64,000 nucleotides of DNA from Spirochaetia bacterium (GCA_965203055.1 OZ241863.1:4288001-4352000); one strand, 5' to 3'; shown: positions 3,264-61,813, numbered from the stretch's first letter. Notes: generated from the sequence alone by a model not told the origin. Translations and numbers: made by a program.

Positions 3264-3266
3264 CGA

Positions 3267-5777: not shown

Positions 5778-5879
5778 CGCCGGGCAAGTATAGTGCCGCG
5801 GCCCGCGGCGCGCAGTCCCGGGCGCAGGGCGCCGGGGCGCAGTTTGACCGCGCGCCGCGGGCACCGCTAAGCTCGGGCC

Positions 5880-6815: not shown

Positions 6816-6964
6816 CCGCCGGAGAAGCCGTGCGTGCATGGCATGCATGGGCATGCATGCAGTCAGTGTTGCCAAATCGCTGATCGGATCGTACGATGAG
6901 CGTTACGTTTGGTTGATCGCGGCGGTGGTGTGGTAACCGCCGCGGCAATCGGAGGAGGCGAGGT

Positions 6965-7960: not shown

Positions 7961-7961
7961 C

Positions 7962-8759: not shown

Positions 8760-8762
8760 CCG

Positions 8763-9542: not shown

Positions 9543-9669
9543 TGCCCGACTTCTCCACGCTCAATGAGCAGGACGCGGTGTTCATCGGCGCTGACCGGCG
9601 CGGTCGGCAAGGGTCGTACCGCAAGCGCTGGAGCGGCACCGTGTACCGGGGCCGGCAGGAGGCTTGCCG

Positions 9670-38897: not shown

Positions 38898-38899
38898 CT

Positions 38900-38927
38900 A
38901 CTTTAGATTAGCATGATAATCTAAAGT
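38900..38927. promoter_or_regulatory. Perfect 11-bp inverted repeat, putative operator
   Basis: ACTTTAGATTA-gcatga-TAATCTAAAGT, 2 nt upstream of the ATG at 38897. Confidence 0.7.
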
Positions 38928-39026
38928 CATCCATTGAAATAGTACGCCCAGTCCGTCGCGGCGCGTGCTGCCGGCGGGCACGCAGTGTTGGCCGCAACGA
39001 CCGGTGCCGGTATGGTGAGCGCGGCC

Positions 39027-40571: not shown

Positions 40572-40586
40572 CGTATGATCGGGCCC

Positions 40587-43234: not shown

Positions 43235-43526
43235 GTGCAGGAGTGTGATGGTCCACGTCAGCAGCGCCGCTTGCGCCAGGGCCAGGCTTGGGAACTGGCC
43301 CGGAAGTACGTCTGGTGGCAGCCGCCGGACGAGACGCTGGGCCGACCGGCGGCTGTTGCTGGCGCAGATCATGACGTTGGGCACGTAGAGGACGTGCGCT
43401 GGCTGCTGTCGGTCGCTTCCGGCGACGACCTGCGCGCCGTGCTGTGCGATCCTCCGGTTGGCATTTTCAACGCTCGCTCCTGGTCGTTCTGGCATCTTCG
43501 GCTGGGCTTCGACGCCGTTCCTGGTC
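43235..43526 (+). pseudogene. Degenerate small protein of the type usually paired with an AbiEii-like nucleotidyltransferase; 3' end abuts the ISL3 end
   Basis: LARKYVWWQPPDE...EDVRWL...GDDLRAVL...GIFNARSWSFWHLRLG; the LLAQIMTLGT segment lies in the +1 frame. Confidence 0.55.
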
Positions 43527-44000
43527 GGGTCTTCAGGATTTCGTGTGGACGAGGTGGTCACGGACGACACCGGCGGGGTAGAGGTCAAGGCCGCCGAGGT
43601 GAAAGTAGATGGCGTTGCGGAACCTCTGCCGGTTGCGAAAGCCGTGCGCTGCGTACTTCAACCGCTGCACCCCCGCGTTGATCGACTCCGCCCGCGCGTT
43701 GCTCACCCTCTGCACCACCGCCGTCACGATCCCTTCCAGATGCCGCTTGACCATCCGCGCTACCCGCTTGACCGGCTCCAGCCGACACCGGATCGCCGAC
43801 TGGTACCACATCTGCCACGCCTTGCGCGCCCACCCGCGGGTGCGATAGCTCCACAGCGTCATCGCTTGTTCCTTGTAGCTCCAGGCGCGGGGTCTGCAGC
43901 GCGCTGTCGCGCAAGGCAGCGAACCGCTCCCAACGCTCGGCGTCCATGTGTTCGGGGTTGGTCAGCCACGCATAGCGGCTGCCCTTCAGCCGATCGTTAT
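43527..44000 (-). mobile_element. ISL3-family transposase C-terminal fragment (frameshifted) with terminal IR
   Basis: LKGSRYAWLTNPE, AWSYKE, RLEPVKRVARMVKRH, SNARAESINAGVQRLK..AHGFRNRQRFRNAIYFHLGGLDLYP; end sequence GGGTCTTC at 43527; frameshift near 43890. Confidence 0.88.
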
Positions 44001-44367
44001 GGCGGATAGTGGGCCGGCAGCGAGCAGGTGGCAGGGAGTAGTCTGTTCCGAGGGTGGGCCAGGAGGTCAAATCAAGGCGTTGCAACAGGAATTGGAGCTG
44101 CTGAGGCAGGATAGCGCGGCATGCGCACGGCAGTTCCTTGCCGATCGTCAGCGACCAGCCCGTTCATCATCCCAAGAGCTGCCGAAATTCCTTGAACTCC
44201 GTCATTTCTGTGGCCACTCCCTACCGAGTCGCTTATTCTGGGATAGATCATAGTGCGGGGATCACAATAATGTACGACGGCATGGGCGAAGAATCGTTTC
44301 CGGTGGTAACTGGTTCTCGCGGACTATATCGGATATTGGCTGATATTGCCTCTGGGAGTCGCGGATT

Positions 44368-45399
44368 ATGGGGGGCGTGACGGATCAGCGGGATGCGCGG
44401 CGCGGCGCCGGCCGCCCCATCCTTGGCGTCGAGCCGTTCGATGCCGGGTACGGCGGCGGCTTCCAGGCGCCGGTCGACTCTCCCGAAGCGATGGCCTGCG
44501 AGCTGGTGGAGGATGGCGGGGTGTTTCGGCGCCACGCGCCGCCGGCGGCGGCGCGGCCGCGGCGGCTGGCGTTCGTCGACGGCACGATGCGGGTCGAGGC
44601 GCGCTTGACCCGTACCGACCGGCACGGGACGGTGACCGGCCTGGCGGGAAGCTGGGGCGCGGGTGCGGTGCTGGCCGATGGCAGCCAACCGTTGCGCTTC
44701 GACCGGATCTTCATCGACCGGGCCGCGATCTTCACCGCCGGGGAGCGGGTGGAGCTGCCGCCGCAGCCGGGCGGCTGGGAATGGGAAGCGGATTCCATCA
44801 CCGGCACCGAGCTGGAGGCCGCCGGCGACCGCCTGCGGCGGCGCATGCGCGACATCGAGGCCGAAATCGCCGAGGGCCTCGCGGCCCAGGAGTGGCTGAC
44901 GGTTATCGACGGGCCGCTGCACAACATCCGGCGCACGCGGGCGCTGCCGGTGATCGGCTACGTCAAGACCCATCACCGTCCGATGCTGGCCGCGGCGGCG
45001 TGGCAGCAGGTGCCGGACCTGCAGCTTGGGGAGCGGTCGGGACTGTTCGCCATGCGCGACGACCTCTACGGCTGCTATCTGCGGGTTGGCCGGCCCGGTC
45101 CGTGGGCCGGTCCCTGGGCCGGCGTCGTTCGCCTCGAAGTGCCGGCCGGCGTCGGTTTGCAGATCGCGCAGCACAGCGCGGATGCGGCCGCGAGCTGGCT
45201 GCCGGCGTACGCTTCCGCCCACCACCGCGACCCGCGCGCCCCGGTCAACATGGCGCCGGTCGCCGGGCTGGAGCGTCACCTGCACCGCCTGCAGGGCGAT
45301 CGGCGGCTGGCGCTGCGCGCCGTACGGGCGGCGGTCCTGCAGCTCAACGAAGCGGACAGACTCTCGCCGGCGGGCGGCGCGGGCGGGAATACTCATTGA
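44368..45399 (+). CDS. nurA: NurA-family 5'-3' nuclease
   Basis: LAFVDGTMRVEAR, VIDGPL, IGYVKTH, DPRAPVNMAPVAGLERHL; directly upstream of HerA. Confidence 0.82.
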   Translation: MGGVTDQRDARRGAGRPILGVEPFDAGYGGGFQAPVDSPEAMACELVEDGGVFRRHAPPAAARPRRLAFVDGTMRVEARLTRTDRHGTVTGLAGSWGAGAVLADGSQPLRFDRIFIDRAAIFTAGERVELPPQPGGWEWEADSITGTELEAAGDRLRRRMRDIEAEIAEGLAAQEWLTVIDGPLHNIRRTRALPVIGYVKTHHRPMLAAAAWQQVPDLQLGERSGLFAMRDDLYGCYLRVGRPGPWAGPWAGVVRLEVPAGVGLQIAQHSADAAASWLPAYASAHHRDPRAPVNMAPVAGLERHLHRLQGDRRLALRAVRAAVLQLNEADRLSPAGGAGGNTH

Positions 45400-47219
45400 G
45401 TAGTGACCTGACGCCGACGCGCATCGGGCTGGTGGATGGGTCGGTGGACAGCAACTCGCGGACCTTTCACGTCGTGCTGGACCCAACGACGGTGATCCAG
45501 CTCGACGAGCTGGTTGCGGTCACCACCGACCTGCCCGACGGCAGCAGCGTCGTCCACTACGCGATCGTGACCGAGCTGCTGTCGCGCTTCGAAGGCGCCG
45601 AGCTGCCGTCCGACACCGGCCGCGTCATCGACCGGACCCTGCCGGCGGAGCTGGTGCGGCGCGCCGAGGTGCGCGTGCTGCGGGTGGTGCCGGAGCTGTT
45701 CCTGGCCCCGCACGCCGGAGCGGTGGTGACCCGCGCCGCCGGCAACCACCGCGCCATCGCCCTGTTCGAGGATGAAATGACGCGCGGGAGGCTGCCCCTC
45801 GGCCTGGACCTGGGGGGAGCGCCGGTGTACGCCGACATGCGCTTCGTGGATGGCCGCTCGGGCGGCCACGTCTCGATCTCAGGCATCTCCGGCGTCGCCA
45901 CCAAGACTTCCTACGCGCTGTTCCTGCTGTACCAACTGCTGGAAGCCGAAGGCGGCATGGAGTTGCTCGGCGGCCGCGCCAACCGCGAGCACGTGCGGGC
46001 GCTGGTGTTCAATACCAAAGGAGAGGACCTGCTGCACCTGGACCGCCCCAACCGCGAATTCAAGGAGGAGCAGCGCGCCCAGTGGCAGGCGCTGGGCGTG
46101 AGCGCGCCCGGCCCGTTTCGCTCGGTGCGGTTGTACGCGCCGCGCGCCGCGGCTGCGGCCGCCGAGCTGACGGCCGAAGTGCAATCGCGCCCCACCGGCG
46201 ACGTCACCCCCTACGGCTGGACCCCGGAGCAGTTCATCCGCGATCAGTTGCTGCAGTTCTGCTTCACTACCGACGATGAACGCACCACGCAGGTGGGCTT
46301 CGTGGAGCAGCAGGTGCGCATCCAGCTCCTGCGCCGCCTGCGGCGTCTGGCCGGAGATGACAGCGGCGCAGTGGTGATTGCCGAGCAGGTGCCGCCCAAC
46401 ACCGGCTACAACCCCGACCGCCTGGCGGAGCGGGAACCGGAGGCGGTGGCTGCGGGCGCCGGCCCCCTGATCCGCGAATTCGGCGATCTGATCGACCTGT
46501 TGGAGGCGATCGCGGCGGAGGACCTCGAACCGCGCCTGAACGAATGGTTCGGGCGCAGCCAGGCCGGCACCCGGCAGGCGTTCCTGCGCCGGCTGCTGCG
46601 CCTGCGCCGCCACCTCGGGCCGTTGATCGGGTGCGGCCTGGCGCCGCTGGCGCTGGAAAATGCGCGCCTGCACGTGGTGGACATCTCGCGTCTGCACGAC
46701 GATGCGCAGCGCTTCGTGGTGGGTGCGCTGCTGGACCGCATCTGGCGCGAGAAGCAGGGCACCGGGCGCCTGCCGTTGCGCTTCGTGGTGCTCGACGAGC
46801 TCAACAAGTACGCCCCGGCGCAGGGATTCTCGCCCCTGAAGGAACTCCTGATCGACATCGCCGAGCGCGGCCGTTCGCTCGGCGTGTTGCTGATCGGGGC
46901 GCAGCAGGCGGCGTCCGCGGTGGCGCAGCCGCTGCCGCGCAACGCGTCGCTGAAGGTGGCGGGGCGGCTGGACGCCAGCGAGTCGGAGGCGTACCGCTTC
47001 CTCTCCCCGGCGTTGCGCGAACGCGCCACCCGCTTCATGCCGGGCACCATGGTGGCGTCGCAGCCGATCGTGCCGGAGCCGATTCCGATTCGCTTCCCGT
47101 TTCCGCCGTTCGCGACCAACCCCGACGAGGCCGCGCCCGATCGTGCCGCCGATCAGCACCGGCTGCAGCAGCTCGAGCGCAACCTGACCGCCCTCGGGGG
47201 CCCGCGCGTCGCCTTGTGA
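45396..47219 (+). CDS. herA: HerA-family ATPase/helicase
   Basis: N-terminal HAS-barrel-like region; HVSISGISGVATKTSY (Walker A variant), FNTKGEDL, FVVLDELNKYAP, ERGRSLGVLLIGAQQ; TTG start overlaps the nurA stop. Confidence 0.88.
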   Translation: MSSDLTPTRIGLVDGSVDSNSRTFHVVLDPTTVIQLDELVAVTTDLPDGSSVVHYAIVTELLSRFEGAELPSDTGRVIDRTLPAELVRRAEVRVLRVVPELFLAPHAGAVVTRAAGNHRAIALFEDEMTRGRLPLGLDLGGAPVYADMRFVDGRSGGHVSISGISGVATKTSYALFLLYQLLEAEGGMELLGGRANREHVRALVFNTKGEDLLHLDRPNREFKEEQRAQWQALGVSAPGPFRSVRLYAPRAAAAAAELTAEVQSRPTGDVTPYGWTPEQFIRDQLLQFCFTTDDERTTQVGFVEQQVRIQLLRRLRRLAGDDSGAVVIAEQVPPNTGYNPDRLAEREPEAVAAGAGPLIREFGDLIDLLEAIAAEDLEPRLNEWFGRSQAGTRQAFLRRLLRLRRHLGPLIGCGLAPLALENARLHVVDISRLHDDAQRFVVGALLDRIWREKQGTGRLPLRFVVLDELNKYAPAQGFSPLKELLIDIAERGRSLGVLLIGAQQAASAVAQPLPRNASLKVAGRLDASESEAYRFLSPALRERATRFMPGTMVASQPIVPEPIPIRFPFPPFATNPDEAAPDRAADQHRLQQLERNLTALGGPRVAL

Positions 47220-48481
47220 AGCTGCTTCATACCGCCGACTGGCACCTCGGCGCGCGCCTGGGACGGCATGACCGGCTGCCCGATCAACAGGCCGCGGTGC
47301 GCGCCGTGCTGGCGGCGGCGCGCGCGCAGCAGCCCGACCTGATCCTGCACGCCGGCGATCTGTTCGATGCCGCCCGCCCGGTATACGAAGCGCTGGAGAC
47401 CGGGGTGCAGGCGCTGGGCCGCCTGGCCGAAATCGCGCCGACCGTCGTGCTGAGCGGCAATCACGATTCGCCCGCCCTGTTTCGGGTGATCGACCGGCTG
47501 GCGGAGGCCGCCCGCCCGCGCCGCCTGTGGATGGTGAGCGAACCGCGGGTGCTCACCTTCGAGGAATTGGCGCCCGAGCCGGTCGCGGTGGCGTGCGTTC
47601 CGTTCATTTCGGCCGGCGCGGGCGCAGCCATCTCCGCCGCAGAACCCGCCGCCGGAGACCCCGATCGTCCCGCCGGCACCTACGCCGATACCGTGCGCAC
47701 CTTGAACGACCGCCTCCTGGAGGAGGCGCAGCACATCGCCGGCGCGCGCGGGATCGTGCTCTACGCCGCCCACCTGCACCTTCACGGCGCCCGCCCCGGA
47801 CGCTCCGAGCGGCGCCTCACCGTGGGCGAGGATTACGCCGCCCACGCCGCCGGTCTGGAGCGGGCGCTGTACTGCGCGTTCGGGCATATCCACGATCCGC
47901 AGTTGCTGCCCGGCGGCGTGGCGCGGGGCCGATACGCGGGATCGCTGGTGCCGCTGGACTACGGCGAACAGGTGCAGCGCAAGCAGGTGGTGCTGGTCTC
48001 CATTGCCGGCGAGGTGCGCGCCGAGCCCTGCGAGATCGCCACCGGCCGGCCGCTGGTGGAGTTCGACGGAACGCTCGAGGAGTTGCAGCGGCGCGCCGCT
48101 GACGGCGGCCTCGATGACCACATCCTCAAGGCGCGGGTGCGCTCGGCGGACCCGATTCCCGACTTGGCCGACCGTCTATTCGAGCGCTCCCCGCGCTGCG
48201 TGGTGTTCGACCTGCACAACGCGCCGGCGAACCAGGCCGCGCAGGCGGTCTCCGCCGCCGCCGGCCCCGGTGAGGAACCCGCGCTGGTCGATCAGTTCCT
48301 GGAGTGGCGCGCAAGCGCGGCGCGCGGCGTCCGCGCGCCGCACGAGCAGGTGGCCGAACTGTTCAGCGCAGCCCTTGCCGGCGCCGGCGGGGAGACCGCC
48401 CCCGATCTGGGAGTCGCGGAGTTGGACGCCCGCGCCCGGCGGGTGTTGGCGGCGCTCGCCGCCGCGCTGGCGGGAGGCTGA
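47216..48481 (+). CDS. sbcD: SbcD/Mre11 metallophosphoesterase nuclease
   Basis: KLLHTADWHLG, AGDLFD, SGNHD, AFGHIHDPQ, YAGSLVPLDYGE; GTGA overlap with herA. Confidence 0.93.
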   Translation: MKLLHTADWHLGARLGRHDRLPDQQAAVRAVLAAARAQQPDLILHAGDLFDAARPVYEALETGVQALGRLAEIAPTVVLSGNHDSPALFRVIDRLAEAARPRRLWMVSEPRVLTFEELAPEPVAVACVPFISAGAGAAISAAEPAAGDPDRPAGTYADTVRTLNDRLLEEAQHIAGARGIVLYAAHLHLHGARPGRSERRLTVGEDYAAHAAGLERALYCAFGHIHDPQLLPGGVARGRYAGSLVPLDYGEQVQRKQVVLVSIAGEVRAEPCEIATGRPLVEFDGTLEELQRRAADGGLDDHILKARVRSADPIPDLADRLFERSPRCVVFDLHNAPANQAAQAVSAAAGPGEEPALVDQFLEWRASAARGVRAPHEQVAELFSAALAGAGGETAPDLGVAELDARARRVLAALAAALAGG

Positions 48482-48487
48482 CGAAAC

Positions 48488-51400
48488 GTGCGCCCGCTGG
48501 AGGTGACCATCGAAGGGCTGCGCTCGTTCCGCACCGCGGTGACCCTGGACCTGCGCGGCCGCGATCAGATCGCGATCGTGGGCGACACGGGCGCGGGGAA
48601 GTCTTCGATCATCGAGGCGATTACCTACGCGCTGTACGGGCAGGCGACGTTCACCGGGCAGAACCGGGAGCTGATGAACGACTCCGCGACTACCCTGCGC
48701 GTGGCGCTGCGGTTCCGGGCGGCGGACGCGGAGTGGGAAGTAGTGCGCACGTTGCGCCGCCGGAGCGGCGGGGCGGTCGGCGCCCAAAGCGCCCGGCTGG
48801 TGCGCTTCGACGCCGCCGGTGAAGCGCTGGAAATCGTGGAGCAGGCGCGGCCGGTCAAAGACCGGGTCGAGTCGCTGCTCGGCCTCAACCGCGATGCGTT
48901 CTTGCGCACCACGGTACTGCCGCAGGGCCGCTTCGCGCAGCTCCTGGTAGAGGATGATCCGCGGCTGCGCGCCGCCATTCTGCGGCAGGTGTGGCGCACC
49001 GACGAACTGGAAGCCGCCGGCAAGGCGGCGGTGGACGCGCACCGCGAGAGCGCCGAGGTGCGGGCGCGTCTGGACCAGGCGGCCAAGGGCTACCCGGACG
49101 ACCCGGCGGCGCATCTCGCGGAGCTTCAGGAGCAGGCGCAACGGGCCGACCGCGCCGCATCCGCCGCTGACGTCACCGAACGGCAAACCACCGCGGCCTA
49201 TGAGGCACTGCAGGCGGCCGCGGCCGAGCAGGTTCGGGTACGCGCCGCAGCCCGGCGGCTGGCCGCCTTCGACGCGGCCGCCATGACGGCGCAGTTGGCG
49301 CCGCTGGCGGCGGCAGGGCAGGAGCTCGACGCCCGGGAGGCGGCGCGGCGCCGGCGCCAGGACGAGGTCACGCAGCAGCTCGCGGAAGTTCCCGGCGACG
49401 ACGACGGCCCGGCGGTAGCGCAGGTAGTCGCGGCGCTGACCACCCTGGCGGACCTGCCGCGGCTTGCCGCCGAGGTCACCGCCGCAGCGGAGGAGCTGCG
49501 GGGGCGCAGTGTGGAAAGCGTTGAAAGCCGCGCTGCGGCGGCGCGGAGCACTGCCGCGGCGAAGGGCGCCCGCGCTGCGGCGCGCGCCCACGACGCCTTG
49601 CGGCCGCCCCTGGAGCAGGCGCGGCAGGCAGCCCAGCGCCGCCGCGCCCGGCTGGCCGAGCTGCATGCCGCCGCCGCGGAGACGGCGCAAGCGGCGGAAG
49701 CGGCCGCTGAAGAGCTGGCGCAGTGCGAACAGGCGCGGCAGGAGGTGACCGGCCAGTTGCAGGCAGCCGAGGCCGAGGCGGCGCAACGGTCGCAGGCCGC
49801 AAATCGCGCCCAGGAGCATCTTGCGGCAGCCCGGCGTTCGGACTCGGCCGCAGTGATTGCCGGCGCCCTTCATCCGGGAGACGAGTGCCCGATCTGCCGC
49901 ACTGCGCTGGCGCCGGATTGGCAGGCGCCGGCCGCCGGCGACCTGGAGGCCGCCGAACGAGCCGCCGAGGCCGCCGTCGCGGCCGTGGCTGGGGCGCGGG
50001 ACGCGGCAGTTGCGCTTGCCACCCGCCGCGATGTGGCGGGCGACGCGCTCGGCCAGGCGGAAGAGCGCGCCCACCGCGCCGGCGCCGATGCGGCCGCGGC
50101 CCGCGTCGAGCTGGCGCAGGCCGCCGCGGCCCTGGATGCGGATTCGGCGGCGCCGGTCGCTGCCGCCCCGGCCGCGCCCCTGCCCGCCGCCGAGGCGCTG
50201 CTGGCGCCGCTGGAAGCCGCGGTGGCGGCCGCGGATTGGGCGTTGGCGCAGCACGCGGAACGGCGCGACTCCCTGGCGCAGACCGCGGCAGCTGAGGAGC
50301 AGGCCGCGGCCGTCGCCGGCCAGACCGCGGCCAACGCCGAACAACTGCGCGGCATGGCCGAGCAGGCCGCGGCCGCGGCGCTGGCGCGGCTGCGGCGCGC
50401 CTTGGCAGCGATCCCGGAACCCTACCGCCCGCCGTTACGGCTCCCCGCCGCGGCGCTTGAGTTCCGCGCGCCGGCGGAGGGTCCAATCGAGGAGCGAGTC
50501 GCGGCCGCCCGGCAGCGTCAAGACGTGCTCGCCGAGCGCGGGCAGATCCGCGAACGGCTGGTCGCCACGAATCGCGAACTGGCGGCCGAGCAGAAGGCAT
50601 TGGCCAAGCGGCGCGCGGCGGAGGTCGAGGCGCCGCTCGCGGCCATGGTGCGTAGCCTCAGCGCGCACCGCGACCTGCTGGCGCGCGGCGCCGTCGAGCT
50701 GGACCAGGAGCAGGATTTGCCCGATCTGCATGCCGTTGCCGACCCGCAAGCGTTGGCGAGGTGGATCGACCAACTCGCCGCCGGCACTCGCCGTCTGGCG
50801 CGCCGCGCCGCCGCATCGGCCGAGCGCGCCGACGCGGAACAGGAGCGCGCCGCGGCAACCCTCGCGCAGCTATCCCGGCGTCTCGCCGCGGGCGGGGAAG
50901 ACCTCCCGGAAGAGTTCCCCGCCATCGTCCGGCGGGCGCAGGAAGCGGCCGAGAGCGCTCGGTTTGACGCGCGTTCGGCGCAGGAGCAGGCCGCGGCGTT
51001 TGCCGCCAAGGCGGACCACGTGGCGGCGCTGCGCAAGTTGCTCGGCGAGGTCGAGGAGCGGGAGCGGGCGCTCTCCGACCTCGCTTCCGCGCTCAAGGAA
51101 GGCGCGTTCCTGAAGTGGCTGACGTTGCGCCGTTCGCGCAGCCTGCTGGTGCACGCCTCGCGCACCCTGGAGCAGATCAGCAATGGGCGGTTCGCGTTCG
51201 TGGAGCCCGCCGGCGAGCTGGACCGCTGGCAGGTGCTCGACCGCGACTCGGGGCAACCGCGCTCGCCGGCCAGCCTGTCCGGCGGCGAGCAGTTCATTGC
51301 CTCGCTGGCGCTGGCCCTGGGCATGGTGGAGATGATGGCGCGCAGCGGCGGCCGGCTGGAGTCGTTGTTCCTCGACGAAGGCTTCGGCTCCCTCGACCGC

Positions 51401-51625
51401 AGCAACCTGGACGCCGCTATCGAGGCGCTGGGGATGGTGGCCGCCGGGGGGCGGATGGTGGTGCTGATCTCGCATGTGCAGGCGGTGGCCGAGCAGGTGC
51501 CCAACGTGGCGGCGGTCACCCGTACCGCGGCCGGCAGCCGCATCGAGTGGCTGTCCGCGGCCCAACGCGGCCGGCTGGGCGAAGCCGACGCCGGCGCCGC
51601 CGCGCTGAGCGGACTCCTGGAATGA
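48488..51625 (+). CDS. sbcC: SbcC/Rad50 SMC-like ATPase
   Basis: GDTGAGKSS, LPQGRFAQLL, coiled coil with CPIC zinc hook, SLSGGE, FLDEGFGSLD, ISHV. Confidence 0.93.
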   Translation: MRPLEVTIEGLRSFRTAVTLDLRGRDQIAIVGDTGAGKSSIIEAITYALYGQATFTGQNRELMNDSATTLRVALRFRAADAEWEVVRTLRRRSGGAVGAQSARLVRFDAAGEALEIVEQARPVKDRVESLLGLNRDAFLRTTVLPQGRFAQLLVEDDPRLRAAILRQVWRTDELEAAGKAAVDAHRESAEVRARLDQAAKGYPDDPAAHLAELQEQAQRADRAASAADVTERQTTAAYEALQAAAAEQVRVRAAARRLAAFDAAAMTAQLAPLAAAGQELDAREAARRRRQDEVTQQLAEVPGDDDGPAVAQVVAALTTLADLPRLAAEVTAAAEELRGRSVESVESRAAAARSTAAAKGARAAARAHDALRPPLEQARQAAQRRRARLAELHAAAAETAQAAEAAAEELAQCEQARQEVTGQLQAAEAEAAQRSQAANRAQEHLAAARRSDSAAVIAGALHPGDECPICRTALAPDWQAPAAGDLEAAERAAEAAVAAVAGARDAAVALATRRDVAGDALGQAEERAHRAGADAAAARVELAQAAAALDADSAAPVAAAPAAPLPAAEALLAPLEAAVAAADWALAQHAERRDSLAQTAAAEEQAAAVAGQTAANAEQLRGMAEQAAAAALARLRRALAAIPEPYRPPLRLPAAALEFRAPAEGPIEERVAAARQRQDVLAERGQIRERLVATNRELAAEQKALAKRRAAEVEAPLAAMVRSLSAHRDLLARGAVELDQEQDLPDLHAVADPQALARWIDQLAAGTRRLARRAAASAERADAEQERAAATLAQLSRRLAAGGEDLPEEFPAIVRRAQEAAESARFDARSAQEQAAAFAAKADHVAALRKLLGEVEERERALSDLASALKEGAFLKWLTLRRSRSLLVHASRTLEQISNGRFAFVEPAGELDRWQVLDRDSGQPRSPASLSGGEQFIASLALALGMVEMMARSGGRLESLFLDEGFGSLDRSNLDAAIEALGMVAAGGRMVVLISHVQAVAEQVPNVAAVTRTAAGSRIEWLSAAQRGRLGEADAGAAALSGLLE

Positions 51626-54600
51626 CGCCCCGCCGCACCCCGCGCCGCCGGCGCGCCGCGGCGGCACCCGATCCGGCGCTGCCGGGGCAGGCGCTGGCGA
51701 CGCTCCAGGAGCAACTCCTCGACATCAGCAACCGTAACCGCCTGATCAACACTCCGGTAGACAGCCAGCGCGCCAAGCAGATCAAGTTCGTCGACGAGGA
51801 TGCCGACGAGCTGTTTTCGGATCTCTATCGGAACCGCCGCAGGATGTCGTTCAAGCCGGCGGCCGAGGACGCTGACGGCGCTGCTCCAGGTCGCCGTGAT
51901 TTCAGGCTGCGGACCGCCCTTGGCCGGGAGCAGCTTGATAAACGCCTGCTGAGCCTGTACCGCGATGCCCGCTTGATGGAGGAGGAACAGGGCGTAAGCG
52001 TGTTGTTCCTGGGCCTCGGCTTTCTGCGTTGGGTCGAGGCCGCGGCCGAGCGGTACGCGCCGCTCATCCTGCTGCCGGTCGACCTCTCGCGTAGCAGTGC
52101 CGGTGTGCGCTTTACCCTGGAGTTGCGCGACCAGGACCTGGAGCCGAACTTGTCCCTGCGCGGGCGGCTCGAGAACGACTTTCAGATCACGCTCCCGGAC
52201 CTGCCGACGGACGATGATTGGCAGCCGTCCGATTACTTCGGTCGGGTGCAAAAAGCGGTGGCCGCGCAGCGCGAATGGAGAGTAAAGCCCGAAATCCTGA
52301 TCCTGGGCTTCTATTCGTTCGCGAAGTTCGTGATGTGGCGCGACGTGAACGCGATGAACGGCGGGTTGTTCGCCGCCAACCCCGGCCAGGAGCTGATCGG
52401 TAGATTGCTCGGCGACGGCTTCGATCCGGCCGCCGGCGATGAGCAGGTGGAAGAAAACCTCGACCGGCGCTTTCCCGACCCGCGCGAGCTCGGCCACGTA
52501 TTGGATGCGGACGCCAGCCAGACCGAGGTGATCGCCGCCGCCCGCGCCGGCCGCAACTTGGTGGTGCAGGGACCGCCCGGCACCGGCAAGTCGCAGACCA
52601 TCGCCAACATCATCGCGGTCGCCGCGCGCGACGAGAAGACGGTGCTGTTCGTGGCCGAAAAGCGGGCCGCGCTGGACGTGGTGCACGCCCGGCTGCTGGG
52701 GTGCGGACTCGGCTCGCTGTGCCTGGAGTTGCACTCCCGCAAGGCAAATCGCAAGGCGGTGCTGGCGGAGCTCAAACGAACGCTTGACGAAGGGCAGCCG
52801 CACCCGGTGAGCAGTAATGCGTACGACGAGGTTCGGCAGAACCGTGATGAGCTCAACGCGATTTCGGAGCGGCTGCATCGGGTCGATCCGACGACCGGCG
52901 ACACCCCCTTCGGCATCCTCGGAGAGATCGTCAAACTGCGCGGCGCGGGCTGCCCGCTGCCGGACGAGCACTTGCTGCCGGACGCCGACTCCTGGAGCCG
53001 CAAGCAATTTCTGGATCGCTGCGAACGGGTGCGCGGCTTGGCCGAGACCACCGCCAAATTCGGTCCCGAGCAGCAGCATCCGTGGCGCGGTGTCGGCCGG
53101 CGCCTCACGCCGATAGACCACGACCGACTCAGGTGTCGTCTGGAGCATGCTGCCGGCGCGCTGGAGAAGCTGTGCGCGGCCCTCGATGAGGCCGCGACGG
53201 CGACGGGTCAGCGAACCCGGCGCCGCGCCTGCGGCCGCCGCGGCGCGGACGAGGTGGAAAGGAGGCTTGCCGCCTTTGCGAAGATGCCGCCGGAAGTTCC
53301 CGATCTGTTGCAATCGGCTGCCTTCCGGGGGTGTTTCAGTCAGGCCGCCGAGCTCGCTGCGCAGGCCGCCAAGCTGAGCAGCGACTGCGACCAGTTGCTG
53401 AAACGCGTTTACCCCGAAGCGCTCGACCACGACTGGGCTGCGGCGCAAGCCGCCTTGGCCGACCACGGGAGATCCCTGTTGCGCTGGTTCAACCGCGCCT
53501 ACCGGAACGCCGTCGACGAGCTGCGGTCCGCCCACCGCCGCGACAAGCTGCCGCGCGCCCACCGCGATCGCTTGGCCCGGGTCGATGAGCTGCTGGGAGT
53601 TCAGCACCTGCGGCGTGAATTGCAGCAGCAGAACGGGTTCGGAAGCGACGCTTTCGGCCGCCACTGGGGCGGCGAGCACAGCGACGGCCGAACGCTGGCC
53701 GCCGCGACCGACTGGATAAAGGCGCATGCGGTCGCTTCGGGGCTGCGGCGCAGGCCGCCGACGCGTCGGGACATCGAAGCCTTGCAGCAGCGGGTCGAGC
53801 AGATCCCGACACTGCGCAGCCTGCGGTCGCGTCTGCAGTGGCGGGATGAGGAGTGGACGGATGCTTGGCACGAGGTGGCCCGGACCCTCGAGTTGTCAGT
53901 GAGCGACGCCTTTGGCCACCGGAAAATCGCAGCGGTGCGGCTGGCAACGGTGCGCGCGCGGCTGGCGAAGTGGCTCAATGGGCAGGAGACGCTGGCTGAC
54001 TGGAGCCTGCTGGCCGCGGCCGCGAAGGCGTGTTCCGAGCTCGGTCTCGACGGACTGCGCGCGCGGCTCGGTGACGGCCGCCTTGGGCCGGCGGATGCGG
54101 TGAGTGTGTTCCGGTACGCGCGCGCCGAGGCGGTATGGCGCCGGCTGGCCGCGGAAGCCCCGCTGCTGGCGGCGCTCGACGGCGCCAAGCGCACCGCCAA
54201 CGTCGAGGTGTTTCGCCGCGCAGAGGAGCAGATCCGCCACTTGGCCGCCCAAGAGGTGGCGCGGGTGCACCACAAAGCGCTGCCGAAAGGACCCGCAGGG
54301 CAAATCGGTATCGTCAGGGGCGAGATACGCAGACAACGCCGTCACTTGGCGCTGCGCAAGCTGCTCGACCTAGCCGGCGAGGCGGTCATCAGGATCAAGC
54401 CGATCTTCCTGATGAGTCCGCTCTCGGTGGCTCAGTTTCTCCGCCCAGGCGGCCTGACCTTCGACATCCTGGTGATCGATGAGGCCAGTCAGGTGCGCCC
54501 GGCCGATGCGCTGGGCGCCATTGCGCGCGCGCGGCAGATCATCGTGGTCGGCGACGACAAACAGCTTCCGCCTACCTCGTTTTTCGACCGTCAGTTGGAG

Positions 54601-56349
54601 GGATTCGACCGTCAGGAGGGAGTGGACGATGATGAGCAAGAGATCCAGGCGGCGCAGGTGAAGGACATGGAGAGCATTCTCACATTGTGCGAGGCCCGCT
54701 CGGTGCCGGCCGCCCCCCTGCGCTGGCACTACCGTTCGCACCATCCTTCGTTGATCAAGGTCTCCAATGACGCGTTCTACGGCAACCTGATCTACCCGCC
54801 GAGCCCCGACCCTGCGGGTGAAAGGGGTCTCACGTTCACCAAGGTGGAAGGCGGCGTGTACGACCGCGGACGCACGCGGAGCAATCCGCGCGAGGCGCAG
54901 AAGGTGGCGCGCGCCGTCCTATGTCATGCGCGGTCCCGGCCACGCGAGACGTTGGGAGTGGCAACCTTCTCGGTGCCGCAGCGCGATGCGATCCTCAACG
55001 AGCTGGAGCCGATGCGGGCGAAGTACCCGGAACTGGAGACGTTCTGTCGCGAGGAGGGCGCCGCCGATGGGCATGAGCCGTTCTTCGTCAAGAATCTGGA
55101 GAACGTCCAGGGCGACGAACGCGATGTGATCTTCATCTCGGTCGGCTACGGGCGCAATGCGCGGGGCAGTCTGGCGCAGGACTTCGGTCCGGTCTCGCAA
55201 GCCGGCGGCGAACGGCGGCTCAACGTCCTGTTTACGCGCGCGCGGCGGCACTGCCGGGTGTTTGCGTCGATCACATACCGCGACATCGGACGTTCCAAGA
55301 GAGGTTCCAGTAGGGGCCCGTGGGTGCTCAAGCGGTTCCTCAAGTTCGCCGAGACCGACGAAATGACGCTGCGGGAGACGGCCAGACTGGAGCCGGACAG
55401 CCCCTTCGAGGAGGCAGTGGCGGAAGCCCTGCGGCAGGCCGGTCACACGGTCGATCCGCAGGTTGGCACGGCCGACTTCCGCATCGACTTGGCGGTGCGC
55501 GATCCGGCGGCGCCGGGACGCTACCTGCTCGGCGTCGAGTGCGACGGCGCCCGCTACCACTCGTCACGCTGGGCGCGCGAGCGGGACCGGCTGCGACAGA
55601 GCGTGTTGGAGCAGAAGGGATGGACCATGCACCGCATCTGGAGCACCGACTGGTTCCAGCGCCCGGACGCGGAACTGCAGCGGCTGCTGCAGGCCGTGGC
55701 CGCGGCGCAGGAGAGGCGCGAGGTTAGACCGCGGCAGGAGCGCAGCGCGGCTGACCGACAGATCGTTATCGATCGCGACCCGCCGGTCACGAATAATGAA
55801 TCTCTGCCTCCGGCGGTCCCCTACCGGGAGGCCGATTTCGAAATCACCGAGCGTGAGGAGTATCACCTGCGTGATGCGCCGCTGGAGTTGGTCGCCGACT
55901 ACGTGGTGAAGGTGGTGCGCTGTGAAGCGCCGGTGCACGTCGACGAGGTGGCGCGCCGGCTCCGCCGGCTCTGGGGACACGCCAGCACCGGCCTGCGGAT
56001 CCAGGAGCGGGTGCGTGACGCCGTGGGTTATGCCGTGGAGCAAGGTTGGATCGCGTGCGACGGCAGCTTCCTGCGCGGCGCGCGCCGCGCTCGCCAGAAG
56101 CCGGTGGTTCGTGACCGCAGCGCGGTGCAGTCGCGGACCTTGCGCAAACCCGCGCTACTGCCGCCGGTGGAAGTGGAGTGGGCGATCCAGCAGGTGGTCG
56201 AGCAGAACGTGGCGCTGTCGGCCGAGGAATGCGCGGTGCAGGTGGCGCGACGGTTCGGCTTCCGGTCGACCAGCGCGGAACTGCGCCGCGTGGTGGACGC
56301 CGCCGTCGACCGCCTCGTGGCGCAGGGGAGTCTGAAGTTCACTGACTGA
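51622..56349 (+). CDS. DUF4011 - SF1 (UPF1/DNA2-like) helicase - Vsr/REase-like nuclease - DUF3320 fusion (Hhe-like)
   Basis: LLDISNRNRLIN, EEEQGVSVLFLGLGFLRW, QGPPGTGKSQTIAN, VIDEASQ, VGDDKQLPPTSFF, LENVQGDERD, RRLNVLFTRAR, FRIDLAV...GVECDGARYHSSRWARERDRLRQ...RIWSTDW; ATGA overlap with sbcC. Confidence 0.88.
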   Translation: MTPRRTPRRRRAAAAPDPALPGQALATLQEQLLDISNRNRLINTPVDSQRAKQIKFVDEDADELFSDLYRNRRRMSFKPAAEDADGAAPGRRDFRLRTALGREQLDKRLLSLYRDARLMEEEQGVSVLFLGLGFLRWVEAAAERYAPLILLPVDLSRSSAGVRFTLELRDQDLEPNLSLRGRLENDFQITLPDLPTDDDWQPSDYFGRVQKAVAAQREWRVKPEILILGFYSFAKFVMWRDVNAMNGGLFAANPGQELIGRLLGDGFDPAAGDEQVEENLDRRFPDPRELGHVLDADASQTEVIAAARAGRNLVVQGPPGTGKSQTIANIIAVAARDEKTVLFVAEKRAALDVVHARLLGCGLGSLCLELHSRKANRKAVLAELKRTLDEGQPHPVSSNAYDEVRQNRDELNAISERLHRVDPTTGDTPFGILGEIVKLRGAGCPLPDEHLLPDADSWSRKQFLDRCERVRGLAETTAKFGPEQQHPWRGVGRRLTPIDHDRLRCRLEHAAGALEKLCAALDEAATATGQRTRRRACGRRGADEVERRLAAFAKMPPEVPDLLQSAAFRGCFSQAAELAAQAAKLSSDCDQLLKRVYPEALDHDWAAAQAALADHGRSLLRWFNRAYRNAVDELRSAHRRDKLPRAHRDRLARVDELLGVQHLRRELQQQNGFGSDAFGRHWGGEHSDGRTLAAATDWIKAHAVASGLRRRPPTRRDIEALQQRVEQIPTLRSLRSRLQWRDEEWTDAWHEVARTLELSVSDAFGHRKIAAVRLATVRARLAKWLNGQETLADWSLLAAAAKACSELGLDGLRARLGDGRLGPADAVSVFRYARAEAVWRRLAAEAPLLAALDGAKRTANVEVFRRAEEQIRHLAAQEVARVHHKALPKGPAGQIGIVRGEIRRQRRHLALRKLLDLAGEAVIRIKPIFLMSPLSVAQFLRPGGLTFDILVIDEASQVRPADALGAIARARQIIVVGDDKQLPPTSFFDRQLEGFDRQEGVDDDEQEIQAAQVKDMESILTLCEARSVPAAPLRWHYRSHHPSLIKVSNDAFYGNLIYPPSPDPAGERGLTFTKVEGGVYDRGRTRSNPREAQKVARAVLCHARSRPRETLGVATFSVPQRDAILNELEPMRAKYPELETFCREEGAADGHEPFFVKNLENVQGDERDVIFISVGYGRNARGSLAQDFGPVSQAGGERRLNVLFTRARRHCRVFASITYRDIGRSKRGSSRGPWVLKRFLKFAETDEMTLRETARLEPDSPFEEAVAEALRQAGHTVDPQVGTADFRIDLAVRDPAAPGRYLLGVECDGARYHSSRWARERDRLRQSVLEQKGWTMHRIWSTDWFQRPDAELQRLLQAVAAAQERREVRPRQERSAADRQIVIDRDPPVTNNESLPPAVPYREADFEITEREEYHLRDAPLELVADYVVKVVRCEAPVHVDEVARRLRRLWGHASTGLRIQERVRDAVGYAVEQGWIACDGSFLRGARRARQKPVVRDRSAVQSRTLRKPALLPPVEVEWAIQQVVEQNVALSAEECAVQVARRFGFRSTSAELRRVVDAAVDRLVAQGSLKFTD

Positions 56350-56350
56350 G

Positions 56351-57220
56351 CTACCCCTTGACGGCGCCGGCGGTGAGGCCGCGGATGATGCGTTCGTGGA
56401 GCAGGACGTAGACCAGGATCGAGGGGATGATCGCCAGGGTGATGGCGGCGAACATCGAGGTGTAGTCGGTGAAGAACTGGCTCACGAAGAAGCGGATGCC
56501 GAGCTGCAGGGTGCGCGCCGCTACCGAGCTGGTGAGCAGCAGGGCGTAGATGAACTCGTTCCAGGAGAACAGAAACACGAAGGTGCCGGCGGTCACCAAG
56601 CCCACCTGGGACAGCGGCACCATGACGCGCGCGTAGCGCCCGCCGAAGCCGCAGCCGTCGATCACGGCCGCCTCCTCCAGCTCGCGCGGCACCCCGCGCA
56701 TGAAGCCGTGCAGCAGGAACACCGACACCGGCACGTTGATGGCGGCGTAGGTCAGCGCCAGGCCGAACAGCGAATCGTACAGGCCGGTGACCGTGATCAG
56801 GCGGAAATAGGGCACCATCAGGGCGATTACCGGCACCAGCACCCCGGCCACGATCAGGTTCAGCACCAGCTCGCGGCCGCGGAACCACTCCCGCGCCAGG
56901 ACGAACGCCGCCATCGAGCAGAACGCCAGGTTCAGCGCCATGGAGAGCGACGCCACGATCAGCGAGTTCACGAACAGGCGCGGCAGCCCCGCCACCCGGA
57001 CGGCGTTCACGTAGTTGCCGAATTGCCACGCCGCAGGCAGCGAGAAGGCGCTGGTGAGCAGCTCCAGGTTGGTCTTGAAGGAGGAGATCACCAGCCACAG
57101 CAACGGCAGGAAGGTGATTGCCAGAAACAGCGCCAGCACGCCCCACTTGGCGGCGCGCGCCAGCCACTGCCGCGGGGTGACCGGTCCGCCGCCGGCGACC
57201 GCGGACGCCGCGCCGCGCAC
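56351..57220 (-). CDS. Carbohydrate ABC transporter permease
   Basis: VPRELEEAAVIDG, FSWNEFIYALL, IIRGLTAGAVKG. Confidence 0.93.
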   Translation of the reverse strand: MRGAASAVAGGGPVTPRQWLARAAKWGVLALFLAITFLPLLWLVISSFKTNLELLTSAFSLPAAWQFGNYVNAVRVAGLPRLFVNSLIVASLSMALNLAFCSMAAFVLAREWFRGRELVLNLIVAGVLVPVIALMVPYFRLITVTGLYDSLFGLALTYAAINVPVSVFLLHGFMRGVPRELEEAAVIDGCGFGGRYARVMVPLSQVGLVTAGTFVFLFSWNEFIYALLLTSSVAARTLQLGIRFFVSQFFTDYTSMFAAITLAIIPSILVYVLLHERIIRGLTAGAVKG

Positions 57221-58104
57221 TACTGGCGTTCCTCCGCGGCGGCGTCGTCACGCGCCAGCCGCCGCACCGTCACGATCAGCAACGTGCCGATGACGATCAG
57301 GGTCACGGCGACGGCATTGGCGCGCCCGTAGTTGAGCGCGGACACGGTCTTGTACAGCATGATGCCCAGCACCGAGGTTGAGTTGGCCGGTCCGCCGTTG
57401 GTCATGAGGAAAGTGGCCTCGAAGTGGCGCAGGCCGAACGCCATCGCCAGGGTCACCGCGGTAATCATGATCGGGCGGATGATGGGCAGGGTGATGTGGC
57501 GTTCCTGCTGCCACACGTTGGCGCCGTCGATCTCGGCCGCCTCGTAGAACGTCTCCGAGATAGACAGCGTGGCGGCCAGGATGATGATCATGAAGTAGCC
57601 GATGTAGAGCAGTTGTTGCAGGATGATGGCCGGCAGCGCGGAGTCGATCTCGCCCAGCCAGTTGCGCGCGTACGCGCCCCACCCCACCAGCTCGAGCGCC
57701 GCGTTGAGGATGCCGTATTCGGCGTTGTAGATCGCCAGCCACATCATCGCCAACGCCACCTGCGAGATGACGTTGGGCAGGAAGTAGATGGTGCGCAGCA
57801 GCCGCCAGCCGGCCGGGCGGCGCGCCAGGATCAGCGCTACCAGGACCGCCAAACCGATCTGCCCCAGGCCCAGGGAGAGCGCCCAGATCAGGTTGTTGCG
57901 CACCGACAGCCGGAACACGGAGCGCTGCAGCAACTCCAGGTAGTTCTCCAGGCCGACGAACCGCATCGCCGTCACGCCGTTCCAGTCCACCAGGCTGACC
58001 GTGAACACGTAGCCCAGGGGGTAGAGGAAGAACAGCGCGTAGAGCACGGCCACCGGGGTCAGGAACAGGATGATCCCGCCCCAGTGGCTGCGATTGCCGC
58101 CCAT
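57220..58104 (-). CDS. Carbohydrate ABC transporter permease
   Basis: FVGLENY, FYEAAEIDGAN, MTNGGPANSTSVL. Confidence 0.93.
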   Translation of the reverse strand: MGGNRSHWGGIILFLTPVAVLYALFFLYPLGYVFTVSLVDWNGVTAMRFVGLENYLELLQRSVFRLSVRNNLIWALSLGLGQIGLAVLVALILARRPAGWRLLRTIYFLPNVISQVALAMMWLAIYNAEYGILNAALELVGWGAYARNWLGEIDSALPAIILQQLLYIGYFMIIILAATLSISETFYEAAEIDGANVWQQERHITLPIIRPIMITAVTLAMAFGLRHFEATFLMTNGGPANSTSVLGIMLYKTVSALNYGRANAVAVTLIVIGTLLIVTVRRLARDDAAAEERQ

Positions 58105-58138
58105 GGATCAGCGGCAGGTCAACTGCGCATTGGTTCGC

Positions 58139-59410
58139 TTACTCGCCGGCCTCGATCAACATCCGCACGAAGTCCGCCGGCGAGGCTCCGCCCACTACCA
58201 TGGCGCCGATCGCCTGGCCGATCTCCAGGATCACCTCGGAGGGGTAGTGCACGAAGATCGGCGTTCCGACGAAGGAAGCGTTGCCGACGATGCGCACGAA
58301 CTCCTGCAGCAACGGATCGAGATCGTCGCCCAACTCGTACTTGATGGCGAACATGGAACCCGCTTCCTCGGTGATCATCTGCACGTTGGCCGGCGCGGTG
58401 AGCCACTGCATGAACTTCACCACCGCGTCCCGCCGGTGCGGATCGTCGGTGTTGGCGGCGGCCAGGTTGGAGAGCGGGAAGCCAAGGGTAAAGCCGTGGT
58501 GGTCGCCCGCCTGGGGCGCGTAGGCGAGCCTGGTGGCGGCGTGGGTCTCCGGCGCGTCGCGGCGGATGCGGCCAATGTACCAGGGGCCGTTGATGAACAC
58601 CGCGGTGTCCTGCGCCATGTAATGGCCGCCCGAGACGCCGGCGTCGCCGCCAACCGCGTCGGCGGTGGTGTTGCCGTCCTGGTAGAGGCGCAGCAGGATC
58701 GCGGCAGCGTCGGTGAACAGCGGGTCCGACAGCGGGCGTTCCCACACCTCCGGCCCGCCCAGGCTGGTGGCGATGTGCGAATACCACAACATCGAGGTCC
58801 AGGCGTTGGTTCCCCCGGTCATCTGCGAGGTGGGGATGATGCCGGCGGCCTTGAGCTGCTCGGCGGCCGCCCAGAACTGCTCCATGGTCTGCGGGAACTC
58901 GGCGACGCCGGCGCGCTCGAACAGCGCCGTGTTGTACCAGATCGGCACCACCCCGATCTCGAACGGCACACTTTTGGCGCGGCCGTCGCGGGTCGCGCCC
59001 GCCACCGCTCCCGCCACGTAGGTATCGCCCCAGGGGCCGGCCAGATCGTCGGTGAAGTCCAGCAGCAGGTCGCTGGCGTAGTATTGGAACTGCGTCGGGC
59101 CGGGGGAGAACACGAAGACGTCGGGCACTTGCCCCACCGCCATGCCGGTCTGGATCTTGGTGCGGTAGCCGTCGGTGTCGGGGTTGGGTTCGAGGACGAC
59201 CTCGATGCTGCCTTCGTGGTCGGCGTTGAACTGATCGATCAACGCCGCGATCGGGGCGGCCTTGGAGTCCTGCCCCACCCAGAAGGTGGGGAACTGCAGC
59301 TCGGTCACGATAGCGGCGGCCTCGCCGTCGCCCCCGGCAACGGCCAAGGTGGCTGCCCACGGCAGCAGTGCCGCCGCCAGCAGCGATCGGAAACGGGTAG
59401 AACTGGTCAT
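58139..59410 (-). CDS. Carbohydrate ABC transporter substrate-binding protein
   Basis: Signal peptide; VPDVF, IWYNTALFERAGV, FINGPWY. Confidence 0.9.
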   Translation of the reverse strand: MTSSTRFRSLLAAALLPWAATLAVAGGDGEAAAIVTELQFPTFWVGQDSKAAPIAALIDQFNADHEGSIEVVLEPNPDTDGYRTKIQTGMAVGQVPDVFVFSPGPTQFQYYASDLLLDFTDDLAGPWGDTYVAGAVAGATRDGRAKSVPFEIGVVPIWYNTALFERAGVAEFPQTMEQFWAAAEQLKAAGIIPTSQMTGGTNAWTSMLWYSHIATSLGGPEVWERPLSDPLFTDAAAILLRLYQDGNTTADAVGGDAGVSGGHYMAQDTAVFINGPWYIGRIRRDAPETHAATRLAYAPQAGDHHGFTLGFPLSNLAAANTDDPHRRDAVVKFMQWLTAPANVQMITEEAGSMFAIKYELGDDLDPLLQEFVRIVGNASFVGTPIFVHYPSEVILEIGQAIGAMVVGGASPADFVRMLIEAGE

Positions 59411-59458
59411 GCCCAAACCATAACCACGCCGCCCTCCTCCGTCAATGCCCCGGTCGAG

Positions 59459-60315
59459 TCACGGCTCGTGAGTCTCTTTCAGTACTCGAAAACAGGGGTT
59501 TCGCTCTGCCCACTCCCGGAGATCCCGGCCAAGTTGCGAGTCGGTCAACTCTTGCCACTGGTACGCCAACCGCAAACATCGCCGAAGCTCGTCCGGCGAC
59601 ACGGCCCCGGCATTGTTGGTCCCCAACGCCCTGCGAAGTCCGATACTCAGTATTTCGACCATGTCGGTACCGCAACAGACCAACCACGGATCGTTCACCG
59701 TGCTCCTGATACTGAGAATCTCCTGAACGGTATCATCATACGCCAAGTCCGACCGCTGAGATCGATTCTTCACTTCCCGAACCAGTTCTCGCACATCGGT
59801 CTGTAGCGAATCGCGGTCAACGAATCTCGCGTACCTCATACCATCGAACTTCAGGGTCAATTCGGAACGTCTCGAATGGAGACGCAAACATCCGATGGGA
59901 AGAGCGGCGTCAATCAGTTCTTTCCGTGGGTTCTGGGCTCGGCAGGAAATCTTCTTCCTACTCCCGAACTCAATCAGCACGCTTTCAAGCGCAGTCGACT
60001 TGATAAGCAAGGCTTCCAAGTCATACGTCTCGATGAACATGAGGTTGCTGCTCTGCCACGAGTAGCCCGCTACGTGGTCCAAGTCCGCGTCGATCACTCC
60101 GACGAAGCCGGAGAAGTTGTCGTCTGCGTCGAGTATCTCGATAACGTCGATAACGTTGGTTTTCCGCCTGCCACTTGGACTGCGCAGTAGCTGCGATTGA
60201 CGAACCGTTCGAAGAACAGGCGGTCGTCGCGCCCCTCGACGATCAGAAAGCATCCTGCGTAGTGAGATCGCTTCATTCGTATCGAGTTAGCTATAGCGTC
60301 CGGGCCGCGTGTCAC
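59459..60315 (-). pseudogene. DUF4435 (TOPRIM-like) protein, PARIS AriB-like; frameshift at ~60160
   Basis: GTG 60315 overlaps the ATPase stop. FLIVEGRDDRLFF...VAGGK in one frame continues as TNVIDVIEIL...GVIDADLD...YDLEALL in another. Confidence 0.8.
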
Positions 60316-61630: not shown

Positions 61631-61813
61631 CGCGGCGCTCCAGCTGGCGGTGACCTGAGCATACCCGATCCGCTCCTTTCCCGGAAGGGACGGGCTGTGG
61701 TACCGAAGGCCGTTGGAGACGATGCCGCGCCACGCGCCTGTGCCCGCCGCCTCGGTGGTTGACATGCAACCGGTCAATCTTGACCCTGCGGCGGGAGGCC
61801 GGCGCTAAGCCAC

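Follow-up and report, generated by a model that had tools for sequence, protein, structure and literature searches.

The described systems closest to a five-gene locus in a Spirochaetia bacterium (GCA_965203055.1, here G000) are bacterial NurA-HerA complexes, the archaeal herA-mre11-rad50-nurA cluster and helicase-nucleases of the Hhe kind. The locus lies in a window of 64,000 nucleotides, the whole stretch of DNA analysed (OZ241863.1, positions 4,288,001-4,352,000 of the single-contig 4.56 Mb genome). It comprises nurA, herA, sbcD and sbcC, followed directly by a gene for a large helicase-nuclease, termed gene 5. With a probability of roughly 75%, this adjacency is a lineage-specific juxtaposition of two separate known things beside defence genes, rather than a conserved unit of five genes.

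The known role of SbcCD is to open DNA ends that are blocked or closed as hairpins. NurA-HerA of Deinococcus radiodurans is available in solved form (PDB 7F6D, 7WRW, 7WRX; PMC9960219). In this complex, a hexamer of HerA moves along duplex DNA and causes NurA to degrade the 5' strand, so that a 3' tail remains. What bacterial NurA-HerA does in vivo is a matter of dispute, and archaeal and bacterial proteins share less than 20% identity (PMC9960219). In the archaeal cluster, the four functions of nurA, herA, sbcD and sbcC are encoded together (PMC3326311, PMC2288612).

The PDC-S37/Hhe/ProA family comprises large proteins that combine an SF1 helicase and a Vsr/PD-(D/E)xK-like nuclease in a single polypeptide; they are stand-alone anti-phage proteins or candidates for such a function. 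Hhe was reportedly first described by Vassallo et al. in 2022. It is an anti-phage protein from E. coli, encoded by a single gene with helicase and nuclease domains. Candidate triggers are placed in the DNA-metabolism gene cluster of phage T7, and a response to the activity of these genes has been suggested (PMC11482910). PDC-S37 is a PADLOC candidate, and ProA is the NCBIfam family 'anti-phage protein ProA' (NF058533). No published study of PDC-S37 or ProA was found, and the function of the family is given by database labels alone. The literature found on DUF4011, a domain of gene 5, is thin. In Pseudomonas aeruginosa, a large DUF4011 gene belongs to the conserved core genes, being present in all isolates studied (PMC10250203).

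The five open reading frames (ORFs) of the locus are located on the + strand between 44368 and 56349, and every one translates without an internal stop:

44368..45399, + strand: nurA, NurA-type 5'-3' nuclease, 343 amino acids (match to PDB 7f6d_H)
45396..47219, + strand: herA, HerA hexameric translocase ATPase, 607 amino acids, TTG start (match to PDB 7f6d_B)
47216..48481, + strand: sbcD, Mre11-type phosphoesterase, 421 amino acids, GTG start (TIGR00619)
48488..51625, + strand: sbcC, Rad50-type ABC ATPase with CPIC zinc hook, 1045 amino acids (AAA_23, SMC_N, SbcC_Walker_B)
51622..56349, + strand: gene 5, PDC-S37/Hhe-like/ProA-like helicase-nuclease, 1575 amino acids, ATG start (PADLOC, NCBIfam, Pfam)

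The nurA stop and the herA start overlap as TTGA (45396-45399), the herA stop and the sbcD start as GTGA (47216-47219), and the sbcC stop and the gene 5 start as ATGA (51622-51625). The sbcD-sbcC junction reads TGA-CGAAAC-GTG and leaves a 6-nucleotide gap. An earlier note on this DNA had described the three overlaps, the single gap and the common strand in the same way; the coordinates and junctions read exactly so. Other than ATG 51622, gene 5 has no in-frame start from the sbcC-internal starts up to its DUF4011 domain, whose first residue is 31. The gene 5 orthologue in the congener G010 starts with MT- as well, ~14 codons ahead of the conserved part. The junction of sbcC and gene 5 is real and stable within the species, because it is spanned by a contig of another study (run X7, ~97% identical). 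This contig passes the junction by 38 nucleotides, and the next contig resumes 48 nucleotides on. The X7 record is the only one bridging the junction among the contigs compared, which are short.

NurA and HerA resemble the Deinococcus complex. HerA aligns at residues 9-579 to the Deinococcus radiodurans protein (PDB 7f6d_B, from 7F6D) with an E-value of 9e-108, while the herA product had no Pfam match at E up to 0.01. A pattern search identified the P-loop GISGVATKT and the Walker B motif FVVLDE. The P-loop region SGISGVATKTSYALFLL is unusual; it and the Walker B segment FVVLDELNKYAP have an identical reading in the solved Deinococcus HerA. NurA matches PDB 7f6d_H with an E-value of 6.3e-13, and its VDG and DGP motifs align to the Deinococcus protein. 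In contrast to that protein, the NurA of this locus is very divergent: the Pfam NurA model yields 19.4 bits, just below the 21-bit cut-off. The locus thus holds a bacterial NurA-HerA pair, i.e. a homologue of Deinococcus HerA with P-loop and Walker B, adjoined by a nurA gene whose product has the conserved catalytic aspartate. At this locus, nurA and herA share one operon with sbcD and sbcC. Compared to the archaeal cluster, the locus is of bacterial type, with best matches to SbcD and SbcC models and to Deinococcus HerA, and with the order nurA-herA-sbcD-sbcC.

SbcD scores above the family cut-off of TIGR00619 sbcd (108.7 bits, cut-off 77.65) and matches Pfam Metallophos (49.4 bits). The motifs DWHLG, GDLFD, GNHD and GHIH were found by pattern. 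The genome has no other SbcD match. SbcC matches AAA_23 and SbcC_Walker_B above their cut-offs as well as SMC_N, and reaches 171 bits with TIGR00618, below the cut-off of 478.5. Its motifs are the Walker A GDTGAGKS, the zinc hook CPIC at residue 467, LSGGE and the Walker B LFLDEG. The gene identities given in the earlier note are thereby borne out by the PDB 7F6D, TIGR00619 and Pfam matches. That note had also called the recognisable catalytic motifs intact, and the motifs checked by pattern in HerA, SbcD, SbcC and gene 5 are. Judged from these matches and motifs, genes 1-4 are a predicted bacterial double-strand-break end-processing operon. SbcCD would open or clean blocked and hairpin ends. 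The HerA hexamer would then translocate on duplex DNA and drive the digestion of the 5' strand by NurA, which would leave a 3' tail for RecA.

The genome encodes RecJ, RecA and two LexA proteins. Two pairs of large ORFs with PDDEXK_1 domains look AddAB/AdnAB-like, as read from their positions alone. For RecC, no match was obtained in the genome. The block carries the only SbcD and is inherited along with the relatives, two points that count against the five-gene system proposed in the earlier note; RecJ and the two AddAB/AdnAB-like pairs are resection genes outside the block. Another Mre11/Rad50-like pair is located directly after a DrmD-like SNF2 helicase gene in G001, G003, G005, G006 and G007 (L101 in G001, 2818-10353), and is possibly a separate defence or repair module. 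This DrmD-linked pair was not found by tblastn in the present genome.

Gene 5 contains the Pfam domains DUF4011, SF1 helicase (AAA_11/AAA_12), MTES_1575 nuclease and DUF3320. Pattern searches yielded GPPGTGKS, IDEA(SQ), QGDE and a nuclease core ECDGARYH. The PADLOC model PDC-S37 matches with 1622.8 bits over the full length (residues 23-1572 on profile positions 8-1539 of 1550), and the PADLOC model Hhe with 636.8 bits. NCBIfam ProA (NF058533) scores 1328.8 bits on profile positions 352-1902. This is under the cut-off of 1500, and unlike ProA proper, gene 5 leaves the ~350 N-terminal profile positions (1-351) unmatched. NCBIfam Hhe (NF042953) scores 908.1 bits, below the equivalog cut-off of 2000. 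With Hhe, gene 5 shares the combination of DUF4011, SF1 helicase and Vsr/MTES_1575-type nuclease, and the Hhe models match its C-terminal half. Since gene 5 is matched over a part only, it represents a related but distinct branch. By domain architecture gene 5 is Hhe-like, as the earlier note had stated, and the profile matches assign it to the PDC-S37/ProA branch, not to Hhe proper. It would most likely act as an autonomous Hhe-type helicase-nuclease.

Sixty relatives were searched for HerA, and the gene order was read by tblastn on 20-kb loci. HerA orthologues with 83-88% identity occur in seven of them, i.e. G001, G008 and G010 from the same genus and G011, G014, G017 and G018 from a sister genus. 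NurA orthologues are 69-91% identical; the one from G001 was not scored, its gene being cut by the end of the fetched locus. The order nurA-herA-sbcD-sbcC is kept in the seven carriers, with a decayed copy in G014 (NurA and SbcD fragments only). G000 and G010 form the closest pair for NurA (88%), SbcD (85%) and SbcC (76%), HerA is uniformly conserved, and pairwise identities follow relatedness. These identities suggest vertical inheritance of the four-gene block in the family, with a patchy distribution: the congeners G003, G005, G006 and G007, whose genomes are 90-98% complete, gave no HerA match. The family also holds a second, paralogous nurA-herA-sbcD-sbcC block with 30-46% identity and the same gene order (sister genus; L013-L015). 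In G014 (L007), the decayed copy of the window type adjoins an intact, convergent copy of the other block type. An operon conserved in two paralogous versions in a family of uncultured high-GC spirochaetes is of modest interest in itself.

Relatives of gene 5 were detected in 11 of the 60 genomes, near the block in G010 only. From nurA to beyond a PARIS-like gene pair, G010 is collinear with the window, except for 2.9 kb between sbcC and the PDC-S37 gene. Three genes lie there (L008, 7037-9938): a sulfatase gene (229 bits), whose ATG overlaps the sbcC stop as TGATG, followed by a Type II restriction-modification pair, with the methyltransferase at 450 bits and the restriction enzyme at 188 bits. 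The PDC-S37 gene of G010 is preceded by its own non-coding stretch, and its product is 74% identical to that of gene 5. The slot 3' of sbcC collects unrelated genes, because G010 has the sulfatase and the Type II restriction-modification genes in this place. In the five other carriers of an intact block (G001, G008, G011, G017, G018), sbcC is followed, among genes with a Pfam name, by cobalamin genes, an ABM monooxygenase with an aldolase, a PhyH dioxygenase with UvrB, or a transposase fragment (G008). At six further PDC-S37-like loci (G001, G008, G013, two in G020, G021), neither tblastn nor profiles detected NurA, HerA, SbcD or SbcC in the 19-20 kb covered; the G008 gene is fragmented. With and without linkage, PDC-S37 proteins have similar lengths (1574-1669 amino acids) and can be aligned from end to end; therefore, the linkage has added no adaptor domain.

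Wider samples gave a similar result. DUF4011 is present in 11 and HerA in 10 of 401 genomes of the phylum, both together in G000 only; none of the 400 other genomes combines them (DUF4011 in 10, HerA in 9). A profile-guided scan of metagenome contigs yielded 73 loci of PDC-S37 relatives, 54 with at least 1 kb and 27 with at least 4.5 kb of upstream sequence. DUF4011 helicase-nucleases of the PDC-S37/ProA branch are frequent in metagenomes. Profiles built from the proteins of the family detected NurA in none of the 73 loci and HerA in none either. One locus has an SbcD-like ORF (L042) and another an SbcC-like ORF (L089), which scores as Lamassu LmuB in PADLOC. The 97 nearest neighbours, from 64 of the 73 loci, are heterogeneous and include HsdM (twice), OLD, GmrSD, DUF4143, a Schlafen-type helicase, LlaJI, HEPN, SRAP, transporters, regulators, Mfd and DprA, with no recurring partner. 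A sulfatase gene adjoins the closest metagenomic PDC-S37 relative (L028) as well.

In the preferred reading, lineage-specific juxtaposition, the space between sbcC and the convergent ABC transporter would be a variable slot rich in defence genes, with gene 5 as its occupant. The slot would have been in place since the common ancestor of this genome and G010. In this species it would be otherwise empty, which brings the gene 5 ATG into overlap with the stop codon of sbcC. With nothing between the two genes, transcription from the operon promoter probably extends into gene 5 as the last gene of the repair operon: a consensus promoter and terminator scan of 43900-56600 gave no promoter-like (sigma-70-like) site and no + strand terminator-like site, a result uninformative by itself. 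Translation is perhaps by re-initiation. Co-transcription is a consequence of gene order and not evidence for a shared mechanism. As sbcC of G010 overlaps at its stop with an unrelated gene, that for the sulfatase, the overlap is not evidence of partnership here. Start/stop overlaps arise between unrelated neighbours in compact high-GC genomes, and functional coupling should not be deduced from an overlap alone. Both parts of the locus belong to known kinds and their juxtaposition is lineage-specific; as a finding, the locus is ordinary.

Several observations weigh against juxtaposition without function. In L042 (1-15181), an independent case and the sole one of its kind in the 73 loci, a PDC-S37 gene comes directly after the gene for an SbcD-like phosphoesterase. 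Its tight same-strand array encodes an SMC-like ATPase of at least 1566 amino acids (weak SbcC_Walker_B), a PDDEXK_1 and SF1 helicase protein of 1316 amino acids (MkoA/DpdJ-like), the SbcD-like phosphoesterase of 391 amino acids and the PDC-S37 protein of 1747 amino acids. The junction of sbcC and gene 5 is kept in the second strain (run X7). With a 4-bp overlap and no intergenic DNA, gene 5 now has to be expressed through the operon or from an internal promoter of sbcC, a dependence that selection could exploit. The block is set among defence-type genes, with SoFic, PDC-S01 and an AAA-ATPase with PDDEXK_9 upstream and the PARIS-like pair downstream. The surveys are samples: many metagenomic contigs are too short to display 4.5 kb upstream, and a single-protein scan of genome contigs with gene 5, a narrow one, gave the G010 locus only. 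No outgroup has PDC-S37 at the site, and the three intervening genes may have been either inserted in G010 or deleted here. In L042, genes for a VWA protein, a PP2C phosphatase and a Ser/Thr kinase come after the PDC-S37 gene.

The earlier note had proposed a composite five-gene system, in which the processing of free DNA ends by SbcCD, HerA and NurA supplies or activates the helicase-nuclease against invading DNA. Such a system would link anti-phage immunity directly to a core machine of DNA-break repair; the findings point the other way, and the proposal appears unlikely. The common strand with the ATGA overlap, the junction kept in the second strain, the defence genes on both sides and the independent L042 locus with its Mre11/Rad50-like pair adjoining a PDC-S37 gene all agree with it, and the Hhe triggers in the T7 DNA-metabolism cluster make a link to DNA processing conceivable (PMC11482910). 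However, only this species and one congener have the linkage, two of the eight genomes with an orthologous block, and in the congener it is broken by the sulfatase gene and the Type II restriction-modification pair. Six family paralogues are unlinked, the protein architecture is the same whether linked or not, and the overlap is non-specific, as sbcC of G010 shares one with the sulfatase gene. The neighbourhood survey for a conserved DUF4011 linkage, suggested along with the proposal, came out negative, both for HerA with DUF4011 in the 400 other genomes of the phylum and for NurA or HerA at the 73 metagenomic loci. An adaptive capture of PDC-S37 as the last cistron of the only SbcCD/HerA-NurA operon, with the defence enzyme made together and working with the end-processing machine, is similarly improbable. 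For example, SbcCD and HerA-NurA might degrade linear DNA cut by the nuclease, or the ends that they produce might load the helicase. If so, L042 would be a second, independent case of a recurring pairing of Mre11/Rad50-like proteins with DUF4011.

Two further explanations assign both parts to one sphere, repair or defence. Gene 5 could serve housekeeping or repair and not defence, as an additional resection or fork-processing enzyme that the break-repair operon has acquired. The core status of the DUF4011 gene in P. aeruginosa indicates that not every DUF4011 protein is mobile (PMC10250203). An orthologue occupies the same place in G010, and some relatives adjoin repair genes, e.g. those for Mfd, DprA and SRAP. 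Against this, the best matches of gene 5 are the defence models PDC-S37, ProA and Hhe, and many neighbours at other loci are defence genes. The gene is patchy in the family, at differing sites and in pieces in G008, and it evolves fast, with 74% identity between G000 and G010 compared to 92-95% for the flanking transporter genes. A housekeeping role is accordingly held unlikely. The converse assumption of an accessory defence island that spans the entire region, nurA-herA-sbcDC included, and whose four-gene block mainly degrades foreign linear DNA, is very improbable. The block is indeed patchy in the genus (HerA in three of ten congeners, not found in G003, G005, G006 and G007), has two paralogous types in the family and is flanked here by defence-type genes. 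Yet the five other carriers of an intact block have metabolic or repair genes after sbcC (in G008 the transposase fragment), the block holds the only SbcD of the genome, and its closest solved relative is the Deinococcus end-resection complex.

The genes on both sides of the locus are as follows:

36355-37713, upstream flank: SoFic-like Fic gene (SoFic, 133 bits)
37644-38897, - strand: PDC-S01/DUF4143 ATPase (PDC-S01, 181 bits)
38985-40571, upstream flank: gene with AAA-ATPase_like and PDDEXK_9 domains
40575-43157, directly after the AAA-ATPase_like and PDDEXK_9 gene: ORF of 860 amino acids, no family match
43533-43961, - strand: truncated ISL3-family transposase gene (DDE_Tnp_ISL3, profile positions 147-240 of 240 only)
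56351..59416, - strand: convergent sugar-type ABC transporter, two permeases and a binding protein (BPD_transp_1 twice, SBP_bac_1)
59459-60253, - strand: AriB-like gene of the PARIS-like pair (DUF4435; PADLOC AriB, 47.6 bits)
60680-61777 (N-terminal part) and 60312-60665 (C-terminal part), - strand: AriA-like gene in two ORFs (PADLOC AriA models match both)

From its gene content, the upstream flank (36355-43157) looks like a defence islet. The insertion sequence fragment next to the operon, mentioned in the earlier note, is the truncated ISL3 transposase gene on the - strand. It marks the upstream break of synteny with G010, where upstream of nurA no match to window genes was found (L027). 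The summed contig depth over the fragment (43501-44001) was several times that of neighbouring bins in four of four runs, which fits a multi-copy insertion sequence. Downstream, the stop codon of the transporter permease lies 1 nucleotide after that of gene 5, in convergent orientation. The transporter genes are 92-95% identical in G010 and have the same position. Searching G001, G008 and G005 with them for an 'empty site' gave only proteins of ~57-63% identity in other contexts, and no empty site is definable. The PARIS-like pair that had been noticed nearby is present at 59459-61777, with the AriA-like gene in two ORFs. These are in different frames here, and the matching pieces in G010 share one frame. 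The split gene is probably a frameshifted pseudogene or an assembly error, as suggested by this comparison. The GC content is ~57-75% across the window (2-kb windows).

The palindrome CAGAC-N4-GTCTG, present in the promoter of one of the two lexA genes, does not occur in the 250 nucleotides before nurA, nor before recA in the palindrome listing. The nurA start region shares a 13-nucleotide word with the sequence upstream of the PDC-S37 gene of G010. The word occurs once in the genome; it was dropped, being at chance level in the comparison (E 0.049, with another match equally long). A TAnnnT-type hexamer (GATTAT, GAGTAT or CATAAT) was identified 7 nucleotides 5' of a conserved in-frame GTG (44377 here), both at 44364-44379 and at the nurA starts in L001, L004, L006 and L007. 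At the nurA starts of three relatives, a TTGAAG-like box is located ~18 nucleotides further upstream of the hexamer. As judged from this spacing, nurA may be translated from a leaderless mRNA at GTG 44377, rather than from ATG 44368.

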